Origin: a virus
Taxonomy: Duplodnaviria > Heunggongvirae > Uroviricota > Caudoviricetes
Length of the DNA stretch: 8,228 nucleotides
Direction: 5' to 3' (one strand)
IMG/VR virus record: IMGVR_UViG_2737471869_000029
Span: 1-8,228 of that record
The notes beneath the pieces were generated by a model. That model searched no databases. It was not told the DNA's origin and saw nothing but the letters and a program-made list of their open reading frames with translations. A program made the position numbers and the translations under genes. Positions 1 to 8,228 of this stretch are shown here, piece by piece (positions within the stretch are counted from its first letter, which is position 1; every line of letters starts with the position of its first letter).

Positions 1-52
1 GGACAGGCCCACCCCACCAGGAGGACCCGCAAAAAAGGCGGCTGCTGCCGCC
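1..52. repeat. Copy A of a conserved terminator-associated element (GGACAGGCCCACC-N3-CCAGGAG-N7-AAAAAAG-hairpin)
   Basis: Positions 1-37 align with 2530-2566: 13/13, then 3 mismatches, 7/7, 4/7, 7/7. Each copy is followed by a different GC-rich hairpin. Confidence 0.55.
31..52 (-). terminator. Rho-independent terminator after the capsid gene
   Basis: Minus-strand read: GGCGGC-AGCA-GCCGCC hairpin (37-52) followed by TTTTTT (31-36), 7 nt downstream of the stop at 59-61. Confidence 0.6.
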
Positions 53-58
53 TTGTTC

Positions 59-1939
59 TCATGAAGAAATCGCTCTGACCATTCCGCGATAATCCAGAGC
101 AGCAACGCCAGCATCAATGCGGACCTTCCAGGCCACACCGTCAACAATAAAGCCCTCCTGCTGCTCAAGGTAAGGCTCGTCATTACCGTCAAGATAAGCC
201 ACCTCAATTGTGTCCGTTCCCTGTGCTGAAAGCATGTACCATTGCTTATCACTGACTTCATCAAGGCGGGGATCGACAATAATATCCAGTTGTTTGTGGT
301 ACGGGTTATATGAACCACTGTTTGTATCGGCACCAAAAGGCGTGGTTGAGTTAACCATTTGCAACGCTCTGTCTTCCAGAGCCGCTGGAACAAGAAGGAA
401 TTTTGGCACAATATTCAGCACCTCACCGTTTTCATCCCTCTGTGTGCGCATTGCACGGCGTGCAATGCCAAGCCCTGTAGTGCTGACTCCGTTATCAATA
501 TCATTTCCGTGTTTTTTGCTGAACAGCGGTATACCGTCAGAAAGCTTTGTGTTTCCTGTCAGCACCAGATGAACCAGATTACCCACCGTTCTGGCGGCTG
601 CTCGCCCCATTGCCTGCGGGATAACGGTTAACTGATTCAGATCATCGTTAATAATCGCCTGTCGGGTAATGCTGAAAATATTACCGTAGGTGGCCAGCGC
701 GATTGGTTCACCACGGTCACTGGTGGTTATGTATTTATATTCCGCACCTTCCGGCACTTTGTTTAATGTCGAGAAGCCATTCAGACCAACACGACGCGCT
801 TCATGGAAGTTTGACAATGAACCTTTTTTCGTCCACTGGCGAAATGTCTCGCCGCTTTGCTCCCATCCGGCAAGCACTGATTTTTCAGCGCCACCAGCAA
901 GGATATAAGTAAAATCGCTGCTGCTGTGGTTGAATGCCGCGTTTACTATCTGCGAGCGTGTGCTGTAGCTGCCTGTGCTTATGCCGCGATGGGTTAATGA
1001 TGCCTGTGCCATATCGAAAAGGCTCATCATGGCGTAAGGGTTTCCGCGTTCTGCCTGCTCGTGCCCAAGACGCGCATTAAGCCCCTGACGCATTGCATCA
1101 CCCGTTATGTTGCCGTTATCCGTATATGCGTAGTAAAGATTTGCAGGTGTGGTTTTGTTTGTCGGTGTCGATTCTTTACCCATAGTGAGTAAAAGACGTT
1201 CGCGCGCATCCTCAACGCTACACCCTGAATCAGCAAGACAACTTATAGCCAGGTCGTTATATCTTCCGTTGAACGTACCGAACAACTCACGGATCCCGTT
1301 GAGTCGTTCCTGTTCTCCGCTGGTCGTTTTCTGGCTGATCATGTTCTTAATATTTTCCGGCATATTTGAAAAATCTCCGATTCGTTTTGATTCAATTCGG
1401 GCCATTGCTGTAATCGCGGGTATAACCTCGTCTGCGAAGCCGTTAGCCTTACACTCATTGCCATCCATCCAGGTTTCCGCCTCCATCATGGCGGTGATTT
1501 CCTGTTTGCTCCTGCCCGTTCTTCCGGCGTAGGTTTCAGCCATCGTGTCGCCCAGCTTGTCCATCAGGTCAGCAAAGCGGCGAACGTCGCCCGACACTCC
1601 GGCAGTAACACCACGGGGGGCATGTATCATCATCATTGCGTTTTCAGGCATAACGATGTGATCGCCACACATGGCAATAAACGAGGCCATAGAAGCCGCC
1701 ATGCCTTCAATGTGTACAATTTTCTTTGCCGGATGATTTTTCAGGGCGTTATAGATAGCCAGCCCTTCAAAGATGTCGCCACCAGGTGAATGGATGCGAA
1801 GATGGATTTCAGACGCATTACCACACGCGTTGATCTCGTCAGTAAGTGCCGATGCTTTTACACCGTACCCGCCGATCTCGTCATAAATGCGCACATAGAC
1901 AACATCTGCCATAGCCTTAATGGAAAACCATGTTTTCAT
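59..1939 (-). CDS. Prohead serine protease (ClpP-like) fused to HK97-fold major capsid protein, 626 aa
   Basis: N-terminal ~190 aa carries ClpP/S14-like motifs (HSPGGD, GMAASMAS with the nucleophile Ser, MMMIHAP with the His). The C-terminal ~400 aa has a phage major-capsid-like tail (FLLVPAALEDRAL ... GFIVDGVAWKVRIDAGVAALDYRGMVR). AGGAG sits 7 nt upstream of the ATG at 1939, and the start overlaps the upstream ORF stop (ATGA). A hairpin with T-tract follows the stop. Confidence 0.7.
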   Translation of the reverse strand: MKTWFSIKAMADVVYVRIYDEIGGYGVKASALTDEINACGNASEIHLRIHSPGGDIFEGLAIYNALKNHPAKKIVHIEGMAASMASFIAMCGDHIVMPENAMMMIHAPRGVTAGVSGDVRRFADLMDKLGDTMAETYAGRTGRSKQEITAMMEAETWMDGNECKANGFADEVIPAITAMARIESKRIGDFSNMPENIKNMISQKTTSGEQERLNGIRELFGTFNGRYNDLAISCLADSGCSVEDARERLLLTMGKESTPTNKTTPANLYYAYTDNGNITGDAMRQGLNARLGHEQAERGNPYAMMSLFDMAQASLTHRGISTGSYSTRSQIVNAAFNHSSSDFTYILAGGAEKSVLAGWEQSGETFRQWTKKGSLSNFHEARRVGLNGFSTLNKVPEGAEYKYITTSDRGEPIALATYGNIFSITRQAIINDDLNQLTVIPQAMGRAAARTVGNLVHLVLTGNTKLSDGIPLFSKKHGNDIDNGVSTTGLGIARRAMRTQRDENGEVLNIVPKFLLVPAALEDRALQMVNSTTPFGADTNSGSYNPYHKQLDIIVDPRLDEVSDKQWYMLSAQGTDTIEVAYLDGNDEPYLEQQEGFIVDGVAWKVRIDAGVAALDYRGMVRAISS

Positions 1940-2130
1940 AGCCAGGCTCCTAACGTTGCCCTGTACCAGTATTCAACCGCGCTGCGTGTGATTTGTCCTT
2001 TCGTGGGTACCGGCATACCCGGGTGATTGTCTTTGATGAACTGCTGATAGCGTTCGATCTTCTCCATAGTTCCGGCGTCTATGTGTACCGTGGCACTTTT
2101 ATCCGGCTTTCTGGTGTTGTTCTCTGGCAT
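1936..2130 (-). CDS. Hypothetical small protein, 64 aa from the ATG at 2130 (track gives 75 aa from 2163)
   Basis: GGAGG lies 8 nt upstream of the ATG at 2128-2130; the ATGATG at 2163 has no SD. Its stop overlaps the capsid start (ATGA), suggesting translational coupling. No recognisable motif. Confidence 0.5.
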   Translation of the reverse strand: MPENNTRKPDKSATVHIDAGTMEKIERYQQFIKDNHPGMPVPTKGQITRSAVEYWYRATLGAWL

Positions 2131-2212
2131 AAATCCGCCTCCGTTTTGATTAACGGGCATCATTATTGATCGATAAAAGTAATAGATAAATCATTTTCTA
2201 CCTGAAAATTAG

Positions 2213-2218
2213 ATTATA
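2213..2218 (-). promoter_or_regulatory. Candidate -10 hexamer (TATAAT on minus strand) for the small-ORF/capsid operon
   Basis: Perfect TATAAT on the minus strand about 80 nt upstream of the ORF start. No good -35 at 17 bp, which would fit an activator-dependent promoter. Confidence 0.25.
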
Positions 2219-2250
2219 TTTTTCTGATTATTCTCAGAGAGGCAAATCCA

Positions 2251-2280
2251 TTGACGCATTTTTGCTATTGAAGCAATATT
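2251..2280 (+). promoter_or_regulatory. Candidate sigma70 promoter on plus strand (TTGACG-N18-AATATT)
   Basis: TTGACG at 2251-2256 and AATATT at 2275-2280. It points rightward into a region with no plus-strand CDS but a strong plus-strand terminator 45-80 nt downstream. Confidence 0.3.
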
Positions 2281-2286
2281 AAGACT

Positions 2287-2361
2287 CGTCATCCTGGCGA
2301 TAAAAACTCCTTTGTCGTGTAAAAGCGCCTCCGGTAACAGCAATCGAGGGCGCTTTTTTTT
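2287..2361 (+). ncRNA. Candidate small RNA (about 75 nt) between the plus-strand promoter and terminator
   Basis: Bounded by the promoter candidate at 2251-2280 and the intrinsic terminator at 2325-2361. No ATG-initiated ORF inside. Purely structural inference. Confidence 0.2.
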
Positions 2362-2375
2362 GCGCCTGTTTTTTT
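2325..2375 (+). terminator. Strong plus-strand intrinsic terminator (tandem hairpins with T8 and T7 tracts)
   Basis: GCGCC(2325-2329) pairs with GGCGC(2349-2353), followed by T8 (2354-2361). A second hairpin GGCGC(2349-2353)/GCGCC(2362-2366) is followed by TGTTTTTTT. On the minus strand the T-tract is only TTTT. Confidence 0.55.
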
Positions 2376-2529
2376 GTAAATGTTTTCGGGAACGCTCCAG
2401 TGATGAACAAAAAACAACCTGATTCGACACTAAAAATTTTTATTCCTCAATATATCAATAACTTATAGTGGTGGTGATGGTGCCATAAAAATCAAAAAAT
2501 GCGCCTTTTTCCGCGCCCGCCCGCCCCGT

Positions 2530-2581
2530 GGACAGGCCCACCAAGCCAGGAGTACCTACAAAAAAGCCGGATTGCTCCGGC
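2530..2581. repeat. Copy B of the conserved terminator-associated element
   Basis: GGACAGGCCCACC (2530-2542), CCAGGAG (2546-2552), AAAAAAG (2560-2566), then hairpin GCCGGA-TTGC-TCCGGC (2566-2581). Preceded by an unusual CCGCGCCCGCCCGCCCC tract. Confidence 0.55.
2560..2581 (-). terminator. Rho-independent terminator after the 90-aa ORF
   Basis: Minus-strand read: GCCGGA-GCAA-TCCGGC hairpin followed by TTTTTT, 20 nt downstream of the ORF stop at 2601. Confidence 0.6.
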
Positions 2582-2600
2582 TGTGTGCTCACTTCTTCGG

Positions 2601-2873
2601 TTATTCTCCAGCGCTTTTAACGTTGATGGTTGTTACCTCTTCCGCTTCGGCAATCTCCCGCTCTGTCAGCGTGGCAAAGTTTGCCGCCGTCGTGGTCATG
2701 AATGCGCTTATCAGTTCGGGATGTGCTTTCGCATATCCTTCCCCCGCATGGCGGTCTATCGTTCTGATTGCCACCTTTAAAGCGTGCTCTGTCATGTCTA
2801 ACGCGCGATATTTCGGTTCTGTTCTGTCTCTGCGTTTTTTGAGTGATTTATTAAATTTCCCTGAAGTGTGCAT
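2601..2873 (-). CDS. Hypothetical protein, 90 aa, immediately downstream of the origin
   Basis: ATG at 2871-2873 with GAGGGGG about 11 nt upstream; own terminator downstream. Ala-rich helical-looking sequence with no motif I can name. Confidence 0.5.
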   Translation of the reverse strand: MHTSGKFNKSLKKRRDRTEPKYRALDMTEHALKVAIRTIDRHAGEGYAKAHPELISAFMTTTAANFATLTEREIAEAEEVTTINVKSAGE

Positions 2874-2919
2874 ATTTATTTTTACCCCCTCGTTTAAAAA
2901 GTTTTGAGTTGTGCCTCCC

Positions 2920-3150
2920 CTTGTCTACCTTATCTACCTTAGTGGCCATCATGCCAGTAATGGCGCGGCTTTCAGCGGGGTAGAGTGCTTTTATCCACTA
3001 TCTACCCCGTGTCTACCTCCCTGTCTGATTCAGGTAAAATCAGGTAGAGAGGGTAGATAGTGGGTAGACAGTAAAAAAAGGCTATCTACATAACTTAATG
3101 CACTGAATTAAATGTATTTTTCTTTACTCAGGTAGACAGGGTAGACAGCA
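2920..3150. repeat. Iteron-type replication origin: at least 10 copies of GGTAGA(C/G/T)(A) in both orientations around an AT-rich core
   Basis: TCTACC orientation at 2924-2929, 2933-2938, 3001-3006, 3012-3017. GGTAGA orientation at 3043-3048, 3052-3057, 3063-3068, and tandem GGTAGACAG at 3131-3139 and 3140-3148. AT-rich segment at 3072-3128. Sits directly 3' of the primase-helicase stop (3162). Confidence 0.65.
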
Positions 3151-3161
3151 ATTACAAAAAA

Positions 3162-4910
3162 TTATAAAAACGCGTCGCACTCGTCTGTTGTTATTGCGTT
3201 AGTCTGCGTTACTCCCTTAACTTTCCGCGTAATATATTCATGTCCGTAAACTTTCGCGGCTGGCTTCATAGCCTTGCCAAAGTCATTTACGTTTAGCGGT
3301 TTGCTCCTGCCTGCGTACGCCATAAACGCCAGATAGACGCGGTAAAGGCTGTTCCTGGTCGTGTACTTCACTGAATCACCACCGCCACCCATCATCAGGC
3401 CGCGCGCTTCCTCCAGAAAATTCAGGAACTGGCAAAACTCAATAACCGGATCCGTCTGTTGCTTTATTGCCAGTGCTTCATCACCGTCACGCTGTTCCAG
3501 TAGTAAAGCCCGTGCCTTCTCAGGGTCGGTAAAGTTCGCCAGCAATCGGCGGATAATGACAGGGATTTCAGCCGCGATCTTTTCCGGTAGCTCCCTGTCT
3601 TTTTCGGCCTCACTGACGATATTGTCGAAACGGAAAATTACGCGACGACGTGACACACCTCCGGCCCGTTCGGTGAATATCATCGGGTTATTGTTGGTAG
3701 CCAGCACCACCGCCCTGATTACCGCCGTAAAACGCTTCTCATATTTCGGGTTTATTTCCACGGGGTCGCCGCCCGTGATTTTCTTGATGCCCGTTCCTTC
3801 GCCTGTATATTTCGGCTGGTCAGCCAGGACGATAAGACGACTCCCGACAACCTGCGCACGTCCACCAGCATCATCAAGCGATGTCATCTCCGCGCTCACC
3901 GTGTTCTGTTTCCCTGCCAGAAGGCTGGCTATGTGCGTGAATGTACTTTTACCGCTCCCGCCGTCTCCGGTGGCCTCAATAAACATCTGCCAGTCGTACC
4001 GGTTCGCCATAATCATGTACAGCGCGGCACATATACGCATCATCTTGCGCGGGTCTTTTCCGGCTGCGTGCTCAAGCCATTTATGAAAGTTTGGCGCGTT
4101 ATCGCGGATGTTCTCCCCAGGTGCTGGTGGCGTGTACTCAATGCCGTTGTGCGTGGTGATCCAGTTCTCCGGCGTGTGCGGGGAAAATTCCCCCGTTTTC
4201 AGGTCAAGCGCACCATTGGCGAACGGCAACAAATCGCCGGACGGCTCGCCCATTGGTTCGGCAATAACTTTTAACGCTTCCACGGCGTTATTGATTACGC
4301 GCTTGCTGAAAGTGGCCCTGTGCTCTGAATAGATCGCCACCATTTCGCGGCTAAGTTCCATTGTGCTGACCGGACACCATACCCCGCCGCGCCATACGTG
4401 AACGATTTCACTTTCCGGATGCACACAAACGCCATCAAATCGACCAGCAAGCATCTGTGCGCGCTCACTGTCTGCCATTTGTGCCAATTGCGTATTTTTC
4501 TGCTCCGGCATGGTAAGCCCTGCGGCAATATTTTCACGCTCAGCATTCAGATAGCGCCGCCAGTTTTCACACTTCTGGACGTGCATTCCTTCGGGGTAAA
4601 AATTTGCGTCCTGAATATCTGCCGCCGCCAGCTTCTGACCAATCTTCTTGGTCTCCACTAAATCCAGTTCTCCGGCCTGGTACAGCCTTACGCGCTTTTT
4701 CCCATCCGGAACAATTTTCAGCGCATCAAGTTCGGCAAGCTGATTTGGCCCAAGCCACACAGGCGGCACATTATCGCCGGATGCGGGGCCATCCTGCTCC
4801 TGCCATTGTTCCGCGTGTGACCAGGCATCACTACCCGCAAAGATAATTACCTCTGTGTCTTTGTGTTTTATTCCGCGTGGCTGTTTTTTTACGTTCGGTG
4901 CCAGTTTCAT
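3162..4910 (-). CDS. Replication primase / SF3 helicase (P4 alpha-like, D5 family; PICI pri-rep type), 582 aa
   Basis: Walker A GDGGSGKST and a downstream hydrophobic-acidic stretch (LIVLAD) typical of D5-like helicases; large N-terminal domain. Start ATG overlaps the upstream ORF stop (ATGA). Iterons lie immediately downstream. Confidence 0.88.
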   Translation of the reverse strand: MKLAPNVKKQPRGIKHKDTEVIIFAGSDAWSHAEQWQEQDGPASGDNVPPVWLGPNQLAELDALKIVPDGKKRVRLYQAGELDLVETKKIGQKLAAADIQDANFYPEGMHVQKCENWRRYLNAERENIAAGLTMPEQKNTQLAQMADSERAQMLAGRFDGVCVHPESEIVHVWRGGVWCPVSTMELSREMVAIYSEHRATFSKRVINNAVEALKVIAEPMGEPSGDLLPFANGALDLKTGEFSPHTPENWITTHNGIEYTPPAPGENIRDNAPNFHKWLEHAAGKDPRKMMRICAALYMIMANRYDWQMFIEATGDGGSGKSTFTHIASLLAGKQNTVSAEMTSLDDAGGRAQVVGSRLIVLADQPKYTGEGTGIKKITGGDPVEINPKYEKRFTAVIRAVVLATNNNPMIFTERAGGVSRRRVIFRFDNIVSEAEKDRELPEKIAAEIPVIIRRLLANFTDPEKARALLLEQRDGDEALAIKQQTDPVIEFCQFLNFLEEARGLMMGGGGDSVKYTTRNSLYRVYLAFMAYAGRSKPLNVNDFGKAMKPAAKVYGHEYITRKVKGVTQTNAITTDECDAFL

Positions 4911-5206
4911 TTTTTACCCCTGAATACGTTAAGCATCTTTTTTATTTCCTGAATATTGGCGCGTGCTTTCTCCCTGCTGGTGGGCACGTTATGCGGCGCG
5001 GTCTGTACAAGAGAAAAATCACGCCGGAACTGATAAACAGGCATCACGCAATCATATTCGTAACCCTCACGGCGGTAAGTTACGCACCGTCCCGCCACGC
5101 CCTTAATCATTACCGTGCCGCCGTACTGGTCGCGGTAAATATCACCGCGCGTAAATTTAGGGTGAGTGTTGCCACTGGCAGTTAAGCCAGAATATTTAAG
5201 TTTCAT
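4907..5206 (-). CDS. Hypothetical protein, 99 aa, coupled to the primase-helicase
   Basis: ATG at 5204-5206 with GGAG about 11 nt upstream; stop overlaps the primase start. No recognisable motif. Confidence 0.55.
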   Translation of the reverse strand: MKLKYSGLTASGNTHPKFTRGDIYRDQYGGTVMIKGVAGRCVTYRREGYEYDCVMPVYQFRRDFSLVQTAPHNVPTSREKARANIQEIKKMLNVFRGKK

Positions 5207-5211
5207 TATTT

Positions 5212-5442
5212 TTATTCTCCGGTGTGGGGCACGTTATTATTTTCGTGAATTGCCATTGCCTTATCCAGTTCATCAATAACAGGCGATAGTAATGTCTGAA
5301 TGGCTGCAAACATTAATACACCTGATTCCTCACCACCTTCCGGCACTTCAATTAATTTAATTAACAACGCATTCATTTCGCGCGCTTTAATTAATGCGTT
5401 TTCAGAGTGGATTAATACTTCAAAAGGGATTTTATGCATCAC
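5212..5442 (-). CDS. Hypothetical small protein, 75-76 aa (GTG at 5442 or ATG at 5439)
   Basis: GGGAG lies 7 nt upstream of the GTG; the start overlaps the stop of the upstream 66-aa ORF (GTGATG / TGA). Helical, acidic sequence. Confidence 0.5.
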   Translation of the reverse strand: MMHKIPFEVLIHSENALIKAREMNALLIKLIEVPEGGEESGVLMFAAIQTLLSPVIDELDKAMAIHENNNVPHTGE

Positions 5443-5639
5443 AAAATTTCTCCCTGGCGAATACGGGCGGCGAATACCATCACGCAGCCATCAGGAGATT
5501 GCTGGCGTGCTTCCTGTTCGCTGGTGGCCTCAATGGTAATCACGCGCGGTTGTGCAGTGCTCAGGGCGATAAAACGCCAGATGTATTTATTCAGGTTGTG
5601 CGAGTCCCGCCCTTGCGGGTGTGTAGTATGATTTCTCAT
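5439..5639 (-). CDS. Hypothetical small protein, 66 aa, first gene of the leftward replication operon
   Basis: ATG at 5637-5639 with GAGGT 5 nt upstream. It is the C-terminal part of the 303-aa track ORF, which I reject as a whole. Confidence 0.45.
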   Translation of the reverse strand: MRNHTTHPQGRDSHNLNKYIWRFIALSTAQPRVITIEATSEQEARQQSPDGCVMVFAARIRQGEIL

Positions 5640-5735
5640 AGCTACCTCGATACTGTTGCTATCGTTGGTGGTTAGAAGCCCGGTTAGTGTTAGCGCACTG
5701 CCGGGTTTCGTCGTTTCTGCACCTTGCATCAACAA

Positions 5736-5810
5736 GGTGTTGAACACCAATTTAAACCTAGGTGTTAAACACGTCAAGTGTTGAACACTTGTTTTTTTTC
5801 CTGCATACTG
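5736..5810. promoter_or_regulatory. Genetic switch: three palindromic operators GTGTTnAACAC over back-to-back divergent promoters
   Basis: Operators at 5737-5747, 5762-5772 and 5778-5788. Leftward promoter candidate (minus strand) TTGACG 5772-5777, N17, TAAATT 5749-5754. Rightward candidate TTGAAC 5781-5786, N17, CATACT 5804-5809. Confidence 0.6.
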
Positions 5811-5838
5811 CATTTGTTTTTTGTGAGGGGGACACAAC

Positions 5839-6018
5839 ATGGCGACAAAAGCAGTAAACGCAAAATCACAAACAGTTGCGGCAAGGGTTCCGCATGAAGT
5901 TATGAACAATGTTGAGGCGGTAAAAATGCCTGGTGAAAGTACAGGGCAGTTTGTAACAGCAGCATTAAAGCGAGAAGTTGAGTACCGCCAGCGCCGCAAG
6001 GCCAAAGAATCAGAATAA
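5839..6018 (+). CDS. Small ribbon-helix-helix-like DNA-binding protein, 59 aa (not in the ORF track)
   Basis: ATG at 5839 with GAGGGGG 6 nt upstream. Sequence MATKAVNAKSQTVAARVPHEVMNNVEAVKMPGESTGQFVTAALKREVEYRQRRKAKESE fits an RHH (Arc/CopG-like) beta-helix-GxS/T-helix pattern. Transcribed divergently from the replication operon. Confidence 0.55.
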   Translation: MATKAVNAKSQTVAARVPHEVMNNVEAVKMPGESTGQFVTAALKREVEYRQRRKAKESE

Positions 6019-6075
6019 TAACTATCATCGCCGTGGTGTGAGGAACTCCGGCGCATTGCTTTACAGGTACACAGA

Positions 6076-6249
6076 ATGACCAACAAAGAATCAACCAATA
6101 CACCATCACCGGCACGGAAAAGACGGCGCAGAAAGATAGAGCATGAATCAGAAAGATTCGCGCCATGTGCTTTTGCCCTTGAGCAATTCCTTAAAGAGTA
6201 CAGGGAAACGCGCTCATTGCAGGTATGGCAACGAACTGAACCAGACTGA
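6076..6249 (+). CDS. Hypothetical small basic protein, 57 aa (not in the ORF track)
   Basis: ATG at 6076 with a weak AGGT SD 7 nt upstream; same frame as the RHH ORF. Arg/Lys-rich N-terminus (ARKRRRRK). A plus-strand terminator follows. Confidence 0.3.
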   Translation: MTNKESTNTPSPARKRRRRKIEHESERFAPCAFALEQFLKEYRETRSLQVWQRTEPD

Positions 6250-6313
6250 TTGCATTGCCCACCAGCCTGATAGCGGCTATCATCCCCGTGCTTATGTTTA
6301 GTGCTTTCCCATT

Positions 6314-6344
6314 GGCGACCGCCCCCGGTCGCCTTTGTTTTATG
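6314..6344 (+). terminator. Plus-strand intrinsic terminator ending the rightward small operon
   Basis: Perfect 8-bp stem GGCGACCG / CGGTCGCC (6314-6321, 6326-6333) with a 4-nt loop, then TTTGTTTTATG. No T-tract on the minus strand. Confidence 0.6.
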
Positions 6345-6360
6345 TGTCATATGCTCCCCT

Positions 6361-6570
6361 TTACACTGCCTTACCTGAATTAATGCGATCCCGGCTTTTA
6401 ACCCATTCCATAACCTCGGACAGCAGCCACCCTACAGAACGACCGCCCAGATTAAGACGTGACGGAAAGCGCCCTTTTTTCTCCAGTTCGTAACGTGTAG
6501 TGCGGCACACTCCAGTTAACTTACGACATTCATCCTCACGGATTACGCGATCTTCATTTATTTCACGCAT
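6361..6570 (-). CDS. alpA: AlpA-family (excisionase-like) transcriptional regulator, 69 aa from the ATG at 6570 (track gives 98 aa from a GTG at 6657)
   Basis: Conserved AlpA core CRKLTGVCRTTRYELEKKGRFPSRLNLGGRSVGWLLSEVMEWV. The 87 bp between 6571 and 6657 is very AT-rich, promoter-like, and has no SD before the GTG, so I prefer the ATG start. Confidence 0.82.
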   Translation of the reverse strand: MREINEDRVIREDECRKLTGVCRTTRYELEKKGRFPSRLNLGGRSVGWLLSEVMEWVKSRDRINSGKAV

Positions 6571-6693
6571 ACAAAAACCTACATAAAAATTACGTATATA
6601 AACTTTTCTCTTAGCTGTAGATATATGAGATCGGATATTACTTAGATTCTTTTTCACCTCTTAAATTAAAAACACAACCATGCTAAAGGCTTT

Positions 6694-6720
6694 GTTCGCT
6701 AAGGTTCGTAGAAGCTCGTT
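6694..6720. promoter_or_regulatory. Three 10-bp-phased direct repeats G(T/C)TCG(C/T)T upstream of alpA
   Basis: GTTCGCT at 6694, GTTCGTA at 6704, GCTCGTT at 6714: exact 10-bp periodicity. Confidence 0.3.
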
Positions 6721-6911
6721 AGTGTTTAAAATCGTGTCACGAGTTTTTAAGCGACGCAACAAAAAATGTCGTCATTTGGCATGACACCTGAATCACCTCA
6801 TTAAAAACAAATAGATAAACCATCAGGTGTTGGAACAATCAAGAAACAGAGAATAAGAACTCAGAAGAAGACATTTCAAATTTTTTCGATAGTTGACACA
6901 TATAAAGAGAA

Positions 6912-6983
6912 GATATTTGCAGATATTCCCCGATATTCTAAGATCTATTCACGGCTGTAATCTCTTAAAGAAAAAACAGCCGT
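6912..6983. promoter_or_regulatory. 10-bp-phased GATATT repeats plus an 8-bp inverted repeat just downstream of the int stop
   Basis: GATATT at 6912-6917, 6922-6927 and 6932-6937, with a degenerate GATCTATT at 6942-6949. Inverted repeat ACGGCTGT (6951-6958) / ACAGCCGT (6976-6983) with a 17-nt A-rich loop. A perfect TTGACA sits at 6893-6898. Confidence 0.35.
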
Positions 6984-6989
6984 AATTTG

Positions 6990-8228
6990 TCAAGAATTTT
7001 GGGGGTAAATTCGCGGGGTCATAACAACGATTTTTTCATCATTGTTCTGGAGAAGCTCGAGACGGTCTACCCATAGATTAAGAGCATCACGTTTTGCATC
7101 AAGGTAGCGGGAGTGGTTATAGACTCGTTGCATCCCTGGCATCTGGTGGGCTGTAAGCTGCTCGACAATATGCGGATCCACGCCTAAATCGTTCAGCATG
7201 GTTGTAAATGTGTGCCGGATATCGTGTAACGTCCAAGGGGCTTGATTAATTCGTCTGTGCGCTGTTCTTCCGTACTCTGCTACCGAAGATTGTCCTTTCA
7301 GTTCACCAAGCAATAAGCCCGTGTGTCTGTTCTGCTCCACCAGTTGCGTGACGAACGGCAAAATGCTTTCCGGTATTGGCCTGAATATGGCGACCTTCGT
7401 TTTGCTGTGCTCCTTCGGTACTGTCCAGAGCATTTCTTTAAAATCCCACTCCTGCACCTCAGAGCGCCTTAGCTCAGTGGTACGGCATCCAAAAACAATC
7501 AGGAGGCGAATTAGGGCGCTGTAGTATGGCGGGAATATTTTGTCATCCAGGGCGCGGAGTAATTCCCCAAGCTCCTTGTTTGTTAGTACGCGCTCGCTCA
7601 CTTCTGCTTTTTTTCCCACATCACCGACAACCATATCATCAAGAACGTTGCTGATTGCGTATCGTCGTTTTCGGCAGTACTTAAGCGCCTGTTTGCATAC
7701 CTGTAGCAAAAATCCGGCAGATACTGGGCTTCGCTTTGCCATCTGGTCAAAACATGCCAACCAGTGCCGTAGCTCGCATTTTTCCAACGGCAAAGCGCCA
7801 ATCTGGCTGATTATGTGTTTATTGATCCGGCTTTTCAGTGATTCGTAGTCAGTGCGCTTTTCCTTTGCATACGATTCAAGCCAGTAAGTGAGCGCTTCCT
7901 TAACTGTCACGGGGGCTAACGCATCCTGTACAGCACGATTAAGCTCATAGCGCGGATTTTTCCCCTCAGCCAGCCAGGCGCGACACTGTGCTGCTTTTTC
8001 CCTGGCTGCTTTCAGGCTCAGATCGGGATAATTGCCCAGTCTCAGACGTTCCGGTGATACCTGCCTACCAGTTCCGGCCCTGTAAGTGAAATACCAGGTT
8101 AACAGGCCGCTGGTGGAATGTCTTACGCTAAGATTGCCACCGTCATTAAAAAAGGCGTTTTTTGTGGTTGGTGATCCGCTTAATTTTCGTAAAAGAGTGT
8201 CGCTAAGTCTATGAATTGCGCTGCTCAT
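6990..8228 (-). CDS. int: Tyrosine recombinase / integrase, P4-type, 412 aa
   Basis: P4-int-like N-terminal arm-binding region (FNDGGNLSVRHSTSGLLTWYFTYR), catalytic motifs LHDIRHTFTT (His-x-x-Arg) and VYNHSRY (Tyr nucleophile), conserved Arg in GCRTTELRR. ATG is at 8226-8228, the window edge. Confidence 0.93.
   Translation of the reverse strand: MSSAIHRLSDTLLRKLSGSPTTKNAFFNDGGNLSVRHSTSGLLTWYFTYRAGTGRQVSPERLRLGNYPDLSLKAAREKAAQCRAWLAEGKNPRYELNRAVQDALAPVTVKEALTYWLESYAKEKRTDYESLKSRINKHIISQIGALPLEKCELRHWLACFDQMAKRSPVSAGFLLQVCKQALKYCRKRRYAISNVLDDMVVGDVGKKAEVSERVLTNKELGELLRALDDKIFPPYYSALIRLLIVFGCRTTELRRSEVQEWDFKEMLWTVPKEHSKTKVAIFRPIPESILPFVTQLVEQNRHTGLLLGELKGQSSVAEYGRTAHRRINQAPWTLHDIRHTFTTMLNDLGVDPHIVEQLTAHQMPGMQRVYNHSRYLDAKRDALNLWVDRLELLQNNDEKIVVMTPRIYPQNS

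Follow-up and report, generated by a model that had tools for sequence, protein, structure and literature searches.

The virus-derived DNA analysed here (hereafter the window: 8,228 nucleotides, positions 1 to 8,228 of IMG/VR record IMGVR_UViG_2737471869_000029, Caudoviricetes) carries a short sequence twice, and the two copies are very probably lambda-type cos sites with the order cosQ-cosN-cosB, set in direct orientation in a satellite of the Gram-negative phage-inducible chromosomal island (PICI) type, which would have copied them from its helper phages. We refer to the copy at position 1 as cos_A (copy A) and to the other, 2.5 kb away, as cos_B (copy B). The repeat, first noticed in a first-pass annotation of the window made from its letters alone, is real: positions 1-41 and 2530-2570 are identical at 34 of 41 nt (83%), the pattern GGACAGGCCCACC-N3-CCAGGAG occurs exactly twice in the window, and not one match was obtained in 200 dinucleotide-preserving shuffles of it. 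That annotation took the repeat for a 50-bp unit made of a terminator and a motif. The element proved to be longer, as it continues for about 200 nt or more in relatives, and the hairpins are separate terminators. The proposal that the conserved part is a DNA-level site distinct from the terminators was borne out; among the functions suggested for it, packaging fits, since the block is the cosQ-to-cosN segment of a lambda-like cos, and an RNA processing signal is not supported.

Read on the minus strand, each copy shows the same order of gene stop, hairpin, T6 and motif or, in full, an intrinsic terminator, a T-run, a cosQ-like heptamer, a 24-nt spacer, a cosN-like core and a cosB-like stretch of about 130 nt. 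Twenty-three (23) lambdoid phage records have a match to the cos_B region (window 2380-2600); 1720a-02 and CP-1639 score highest (90% over 167 nt), followed by mEp460-type and Shiga toxin (Stx)-converting phages. The motif is thus not specific to satellites, being carried by helper phages as well. In the annotated records of 1720a-02, mEp460 and mEp460_4F5, the element is found after the lysis genes or just before the genes of the small and large terminase subunits (terS and terL), and the gene order Rz/endopeptidase, cos, terS, terL, portal holds in about 59 phage occurrences. The start of terS lies 163-205 nt downstream in these phages, compared with 191 nt in lambda, and the mEp460_4F5 record begins at CCACGGGGCGGG, 5 nt before the predicted nick.

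The resemblance to lambda extends to the order and spacing of the individual signals. The joined ends of lambda read GGGTCCT-N23-ACG|GGGCGGCGACCT|CGCGGGTTTTCGC and the element reads GGGTCCT-N24-ACG GGGCGGGCGG(G)CGCGGAAAAAGGCGC, the last part starting with CGCGG in both; in lambda, GGGTCCT occupies what we take to be the position of cosQ. The core ACG GGGCGGGCGG(G)CG CGG is found in cos_B and in the cos_A of relatives, its left half being identical to that of lambda and its CG flanks conserved, and an A/T-rich stretch is likewise shared with lambda. In lambda itself, conservation is known for the 7-bp cosQ, for the CG pairs on either side of the nicks and for the left half of cosN (PMC4669245), and R3 lies at bp 50-65 (PMC9026076). 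In the window, all parts of cos_B are on the minus strand: a type I cosB-like segment at 2398..2510 (about 90% identity, 90.5%, over 167 nt to the cos region of 1720a-02), within which an R3-equivalent, GGCACCATCACCACCAC, lies at 2468-2484, about +42 to +58 from the predicted nick; a cosN-like core, ACG GGGCGGGCGGGCG CGG, at 2511..2529 (compare ACG GGGCGGCGACCT CGCGG in lambda); and the cosQ side, which is copy B proper, at 2530..2565, formed by the spacer, a degenerate cosQ (AGGTACT, 2551-2557, two mismatches to GGGTCCT) and a T-run (2560-2565). Because the element aligns with the lambda cos in this way, the motif of the first-pass annotation corresponds to what precedes the cleavage site, namely the T-run, cosQ and the spacer between cosQ and cosN. 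By analogy to lambda, terminase would cut the predicted cosN to produce cohesive virion ends.

cos_A appears in the window as a fragment of its cosQ side (1..36, minus strand), composed of the spacer (1-21), the cosQ heptamer GGGTCCT (22-28) and the T-run (31-36), and ending at the window edge, 3 nt short of the predicted cosN. Here the heptamer is exact and lies 24 nt from ACG|G (in lambda, GGGTCCT lies 23 nt before the nick); it is exact in 24 of 24 relatives as well, and the cos_B copies have AGGTACT in 16 of 25 cases and exact GGGTCCT in the other 9. The start of copy A had been noted to coincide with window position 1. As the window begins 3 nt before ACG and relatives continue leftwards, this is a truncation of copy A by the window edge and not a boundary of the element. 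Indeed, copy A extends leftwards by at least about 200 nt, into ACG GGGCGGGCGG.. and a type II cosB, both in 24 related loci and in the closest complete genome, that of Escherichia coli OkiPb01678 (locus L001 in our numbering; 96% identity to the window). To the left of copy A, the minus strand of L001 reads ...GGTGGGTATGAAC ACG GGGCGGGCGGGCGCGGAAAGAAGCGCATTTTTTTGATTTTATCGTCATCATCATCATG..., a stretch with homology to window 2398-2529 alongside copy B. An unrelated whole contig (L067, IMGVR_UViG_2778261356_000005) starts, at its own position 1, on the same base of cos_A as the window, 3 nt from the predicted nick; this shared start may reflect a genuine end of the DNA, or both assemblies may have broken in the G-rich run GGGGCGGGCGGGCGCGG.

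The first-pass annotation had also noted a different GC-rich hairpin following each copy on the plus strand, and both were confirmed (37-52 and 2565-2582), each lying 5' of a T6 on the minus strand. The hairpin at 37..52 (GGCGGCAGCAGCCGCC then T6 on the minus strand, an 8-pair stem; GGCGGCTGCTGCCGCC on the plus strand) terminates the ORF75/capsid operon, whose capsid-fusion open reading frame (ORF) spans 59-1939 on the minus strand, and that at 2565..2582 (AGCCGGAGCAATCCGGCT then T6, a 7-pair stem; AGCCGGATTGCTCCGGCT on the plus strand) terminates the transcript of the 90-aa ORF90 (2601-2873, minus strand). Each GC-rich hairpin is thus an ordinary intrinsic terminator that belongs to the operon upstream and abuts cosQ. 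Where satellites have these GC-rich terminators, phages (lambda among them) have a hairpin that is AT-rich; at loci L003 (2982-3005) and L008 (260-275, lambda 48459-48474) the AT-rich hairpin ATGATAAnnATTATCAT and a short T-run directly precede cosQ.

To see how the sites are arranged more widely, we used a scan of viral contigs with GGTGGGCCTGNNCACGGGGCGGG, which gave 97 loci that were annotated by tblastn against reference proteins. The first 42 nt of the window have no exact match among the viral contigs. From these and the reference loci, 157 cos cores were classed by the gene that follows: 59 precede a phage terS, 25 precede ORF75 and the capsid fusion (cos_B), 24 precede hyp93 (cos_A), 16 precede hyp68 in islands with a lambda-E-like capsid and decoration module, and 13 precede rppA or a terS-like gene. 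At 20 loci cos_B and cos_A are both present, in direct orientation and at a constant spacing of 2536-2540 bp, bracketing ORF75 and the capsid gene as had been proposed for the window. This two-site cassette sits on diverse backbones, with 36-99% aa identity to the primase of the window and 21-100% to its integrase. The bracketing of the capsid cassette is therefore a conserved design. The islands with the lambda-E-like capsid and decoration module have three cos cores each (L002 3700-7650; L013, L033, L037, L047, L080-L082, L091 and L101): a type II core before hyp68, a lambda-type core before rppA or the terS-like gene, and an inverted lambda-type core whose cosQ side overlaps the start of hyp93. 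Neither hyp93 nor the terS-like protein of L002 had a meaningful match among PDB sequences.

The two sites of the cassette differ in their cosB. The cosB of cos_B has a mean identity of 0.83 to that of one set of phages (type I) and 0.67 to that of another (type II), and the cosB of cos_A has a mean identity of 0.86 to type II and 0.67 to type I phages. Between cos_A and cos_B of the satellites, identity in cosB is 0.69, and within each class it is 0.93-0.97; the cosQ side and cosN show 0.76-0.94 identity across all class pairs. The same two sets of phages are distinguished by their TerS, which is 95-100% identical to the TerS of 1720a-02 in type I and 75-77% in type II. The two TerS types are about 100% identical from residue 80 on (the C-terminal half) and 57-65% identical in residues 1-80, most of the divergence falling in residues 30-66. 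By analogy, the conserved C-terminal part would be the part that binds TerL in lambda. The N-terminal divergence of TerS, together with the cosB classes, is the pattern that would be expected for different packaging specificities; lambda and phage 21, which differ in packaging specificity, offer a similar pattern (PMC4669245, PMC9026076).

Judging by its gene content (int, alpA, primase, DUF4222, iterons), chromosomal site and gene order, the window is a Gram-negative PICI-type (EcCI) satellite. All long ORFs are on the minus strand. Pfam identified a D5-type primase (D5_N/DUF5906, 3162-4910), AlpA (6361-6657), an integrase (6990-8228) and a DUF4222 protein, and the order of the genes is that of EcCICFT073 and of Gram-negative PICIs. 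Upstream of cos_B, the replication-side operon ends with ORF90 (2601..2873, phrog_1231, 90 aa, function unassigned). The first gene after cos_B is ORF75 (1936..2163, phrog_4934, function unassigned), which always accompanies the capsid fusion and is 96-100% identical at the aa level in 25 loci; that ORF75 might be a remnant of a gpW-like or TerS protein of the helper was considered and rejected, no similarity being detected. It is followed by the 626-aa fusion of a ClpP-like prohead protease and a major capsid protein (59..1939; Phage_capsid_4 1e-54, CLP_protease 4e-33), 51% identical over its full length to a 659-aa homolog of phage 1720a-02. The L001 island is flanked by clpS and yljB/cspD, is no longer than 10.4 kb and has three further genes to the left of window position 1, for hyp93, a hypothetical protein and PerC. 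In the island of the window we found no homolog of terS, terL, portal or rpp, the window and the whole L001 island having been searched for an RppA homolog. A helper phage would induce, replicate and transfer such an island, as the shared cos, the capsid homolog and the embedding of related satellites in helper prophages indirectly suggest.

Two other satellite types were considered for the island. Capsid-forming PICIs carry a full head and packaging set (terS, portal, protease, capsid, connectors); this assignment was rejected, as only the protease-capsid fusion is present, without portal or terS. An Rpp-dependent PICI cos, of the type of cos1 in EcCICFT073, was rejected as well, since there is no rpp homolog and both cosB segments are phage-like. 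Elsewhere in the island, a repeat search found a cluster of direct and inverted GGTAGA(T/C)AG-type units at window 2920-3150, immediately downstream of the primase gene; this is where the replication origins of PICIs, with their iterons, have been reported. On the plus strand, window 5640-5712 resembles the SymR antitoxin RNA of Rfam, though below threshold (32.9 bits; gathering score 61; E = 0.003), and is antisense to a 303-aa ORF (5439-6350). Beyond the window, at the island's far end, is the gene for the PerC-family regulator (L001 6674-6976); PerC homologs are virulence regulators, and perC is also listed as an accessory gene of EcCICFT073.

The closest known system is EcCICFT073, which has two cos sites, both functional when cloned, as found by deletion and plasmid-transfer assays (PMC6092414, PMC6739421). 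Transfer depends on cos1, for whose recognition RppA-TerS is used (PMC6092414, PMC6739421), and deletion of cos2 raised transfer (PMC6092414). We took the EcCICFT073 coordinates from the supplement of PMC6092414 and located both cos sites in the CFT073 sequence; RppA of CFT073 was identified through PDB 6hlk (E = 5e-31) as a 144-aa protein. EcCICFT073 resembles the window in its gene order (int, alpA, DUF4222, pri, ORF90-like, ..., capsid gene, ..., hyp93), in having two cos sites with a helper-like cosQ and cosN, and in the GC-rich terminator and T-run directly before cosQ, the hairpin of cos1 (GGCCGGAGAAATCCGGC) being nearly that of window copy B. However, its cosN is of the lambda type (GGGCGGCGACCT) with an exact GGGTCCT, whereas that of the window is of the 1720a-02/mEp460 type; its sites are inverted and flank rppA, whereas those of the window are direct, 2.5 kb apart, and flank ORF75 and the protease-capsid fusion; and the cosB of its cos1 is non-phage and read by an RppA-TerS heterodimer, whereas the cosB segments of the window's island are phage-like and come without rpp. 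The carriage of a helper cos and the presence of two cos per island are thus already published for EcCICFT073, and the differences seen in the window are variations within a described phenomenon.

More distant systems share single traits with the window. Satellite P4 likewise carries the cos of its helper, of the P2 type with 19 nt, as a single site in an unrelated gene set. Lambda has the same order and spacing of cos signals, with an R3 to which the equivalent about 45-60 nt from the predicted nick corresponds; it differs in that the cosN centre of the present element varies in length, its nicks being placed by analogy, and the TerS of this phage group is a 158-aa phrog_141 protein and not Nu1. 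In Staphylococcus aureus, SaPIbov5 (and SaPIbov4) combine a helper cos with a capsid-protein homolog (Ccm), and two putative cos sites are mentioned for SaPIbov4 in work cited by PMC6092414; these are Gram-positive elements with unrelated sequences and an HNH-type cos system.

The cassette of cos_B, ORF75, capsid, cos_A and hyp93 is also found in satellites inside prophages of both TerS types, between terS and terL. These embedded satellites (L015, L024, L041, L042, L067, L068, L093, L104 and L106) lie between terS and terL residue ~330, have a different integrase (21-24% identical to that of the window), and sit in prophages that have their own cos upstream. They are the helper-embedded satellites of a 2022 preprint (bioRxiv 10.1101/2022.07.18.500453), that is, satellites with the same cassette integrated into terL of prophages with a matching cos; the island of the window differs from them in being chromosomal (clpS-cspD) and in its integrase. 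The preprint reports a 258-bp segment 90% identical between satellite and helper at the cos position and contains no description of paired cos sites of two cosB types (bioRxiv 10.1101/2022.07.18.500453).

How the sites might work can be proposed from these comparisons. A lambdoid helper belonging to the 1720a-02 / CP-1639 / Stx-phage / mEp460 group would supply the terminase, which would bind cosB through TerS and nick cosN; the replicated satellite concatemer would be packaged in the direction cosB, ORF75, capsid gene, and packaging would terminate at a downstream cosQ and cosN. cos_B (2398-2565) would serve helpers with a type I TerS and cos_A helpers with a type II TerS. Most likely, we infer, both sites are kept so that either helper lineage could initiate packaging. 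A broader idea can be put forward only tentatively, as one possibility: that E. coli PICI-type satellites collect cos sites of differing cosB specificity (here for two TerS lineages; in the islands with a major capsid protein and decoration module, type II and lambda-type), so that one island could be packaged by several helpers of unrelated specificity without Rpp, with cos_B (intact cosB, degenerate cosQ) and cos_A (perfect cosQ) dividing the labour of initiator and terminator.

Several observations weigh against this scheme. The window's own copy A is visible only as a 36-nt stub, and the nick positions in this phage group are predicted by analogy to lambda. The cosN centre varies in length, with 9-12 nt between ACG and CGCGG; between ACG and CGCGGAAA both its length and its sequence vary, as in GGGCGGGCGG, GGGCGGGCGGG, GGGCGGAGGGG and GGGCGGGAGGGG (window 2511-2529 and its equivalents in L010-L106). 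In 15 of the 20 two-site loci, moreover, cos_A and cos_B have different cosN centres, so that packaging begun at one site and ended at the other would yield mismatched cohesive ends. With its degenerate cosQ, AGGTACT, the cos_B of the window may terminate poorly, and the rise in EcCICFT073 transfer upon deletion of cos2 means that a second cos is not necessarily beneficial. Regarding helper specificity, the cosB classes track the N-terminal variants of TerS, but the predicted recognition helix, HRQTVAAR, is identical in both and a CATCA core is common to the R3-equivalents, so that each TerS type may recognise both types of cosB. Since cosB adjoins the 5' end of terS, the covariation may moreover reflect physical linkage rather than specificity.

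The same EcCICFT073 results, in which only cos1 is needed for transfer and loss of cos2 raises it, lend some weight to a different explanation, in which one site works and the other is a relic that was carried along with a capsid cassette captured from a helper or another satellite and persists by hitch-hiking. Such satellites are known to have taken over late genes of their helpers, and the cosQ of cos_B is degenerate in 16 of 25 copies. However, in all 20 two-site loci cosN is kept at both sites and each has a helper-like cosB, and the identity of cosB within each class (0.93-0.97) is maintained despite the diversity of the backbones (primase 36-99%, integrase 21-100% aa identity). Moreover, cos_B is 83-90% identical to phage cos, compared with 51% at the protein level for the adjacent capsid, so the two were not captured together recently. 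We regard a relic site as somewhat unlikely. A little less likely still is that the repeats act mainly as recombination substrates, being direct repeats of ~75-200 bp shared with each other and with helpers, and thereby move the capsid module. The first-pass annotation had raised module exchange or deletion between the repeats, and the exchange part of that suggestion has some support: near-identical backbones do carry alternative capsid modules (L037 has an integrase 100% and a primase 99% identical to those of the window, yet a different capsid module), islands with the other module align to the window only from 2612, and hyp93 is found on the far side of the other cos with either module. 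Because islands with near-identical backbones differ in this way, the variable module is bounded by a terminator and cos on one side and by cos and hyp93 on the other. Homology breaks at 2582/2612 next to cos_B, many islands aligning to the window over 4-2582 and again from 2612, but this gap is a recurrent indel of the gene for single-stranded DNA-binding protein (SSB; ~420 bp between ORF90 and the terminator before cos_B in most related islands, absent from the window) and not a crossover inside cos. The deletion part found less support, as no island among the related loci examined has the cassette cleanly deleted between cos_B and cos_A. One junction does remove everything between two cos copies: at L061 900-1560 (IMGVR_UViG_2534681940_000022), phage lysis genes, the phage AT-rich hairpin, cosQ and cosN are joined to the cosB of a satellite cos_A, hyp93 and terL residues 330-707, with terS, the 5' portion of terL and all other satellite sequence missing. 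This could be either cos x cos recombination or packaging that started at cos_A and ended at the phage cos, and it thus fits cos-to-cos packaging equally well. Recombination would also be a by-product of a shared packaging sequence, and it leaves the conservation in phages unexplained.

Two further explanations fare worse. Each copy lies between a terminator and the next operon (ORF75-capsid or hyp93), and because it follows a terminator, these operons need a promoter somewhere in the 200-370 nt downstream of that terminator; the repeats could then be promoters or operators of late-type genes answering a helper-encoded activator. But the same block precedes terS inside the late operon of phages, a sigma-70 scan found no promoter-like site in either copy, and the strongest conservation is in the G-rich cosN core and cosQ, matching the cleavage and termination signals of lambda and unlike promoter elements, all of which makes such transcriptional control improbable. 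That the repeats might be a host intergenic repeat, similar to repetitive extragenic palindromes (REP) or bacterial interspersed mosaic elements (BIME), had been named beforehand as the case to check, and the sequence is indeed GC-rich and adjoins hairpins. Among 5426 complete E. coli genomes, 342-392 (~7%) have the element, at 1-5 places per genome with a median of 1; nearly all contexts examined are phage or satellite, and a whole-window scan found no Rfam family at the repeats. A host repeat is excluded by these counts, and the shuffles leave the chance of a fortuitous match negligible. A 16-base pattern, TCCTGGNNNGGTGGGCCTG, was also searched against genome contigs and was too short, giving chance matches in GC-rich genomes. 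An attachment (att) or arm site was considered for the repeats and rejected. The reading of the two copies as lambda-type cos sites is thus the one we retain.

All together, what appeared to be a mystery motif is explained as ordinary satellite biology. The comparison defines the cos region of a widespread lambdoid group that includes Stx-converting phages, for which we found none described in the literature consulted for the group, and it points to likely helpers of the satellite family. Should the two sites differ in helper specificity, they would offer satellites an Rpp-independent way to widen their helper range, and this would bear on the spread of such islands, and of nearby virulence genes such as perC, among pathogenic E. 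coli.

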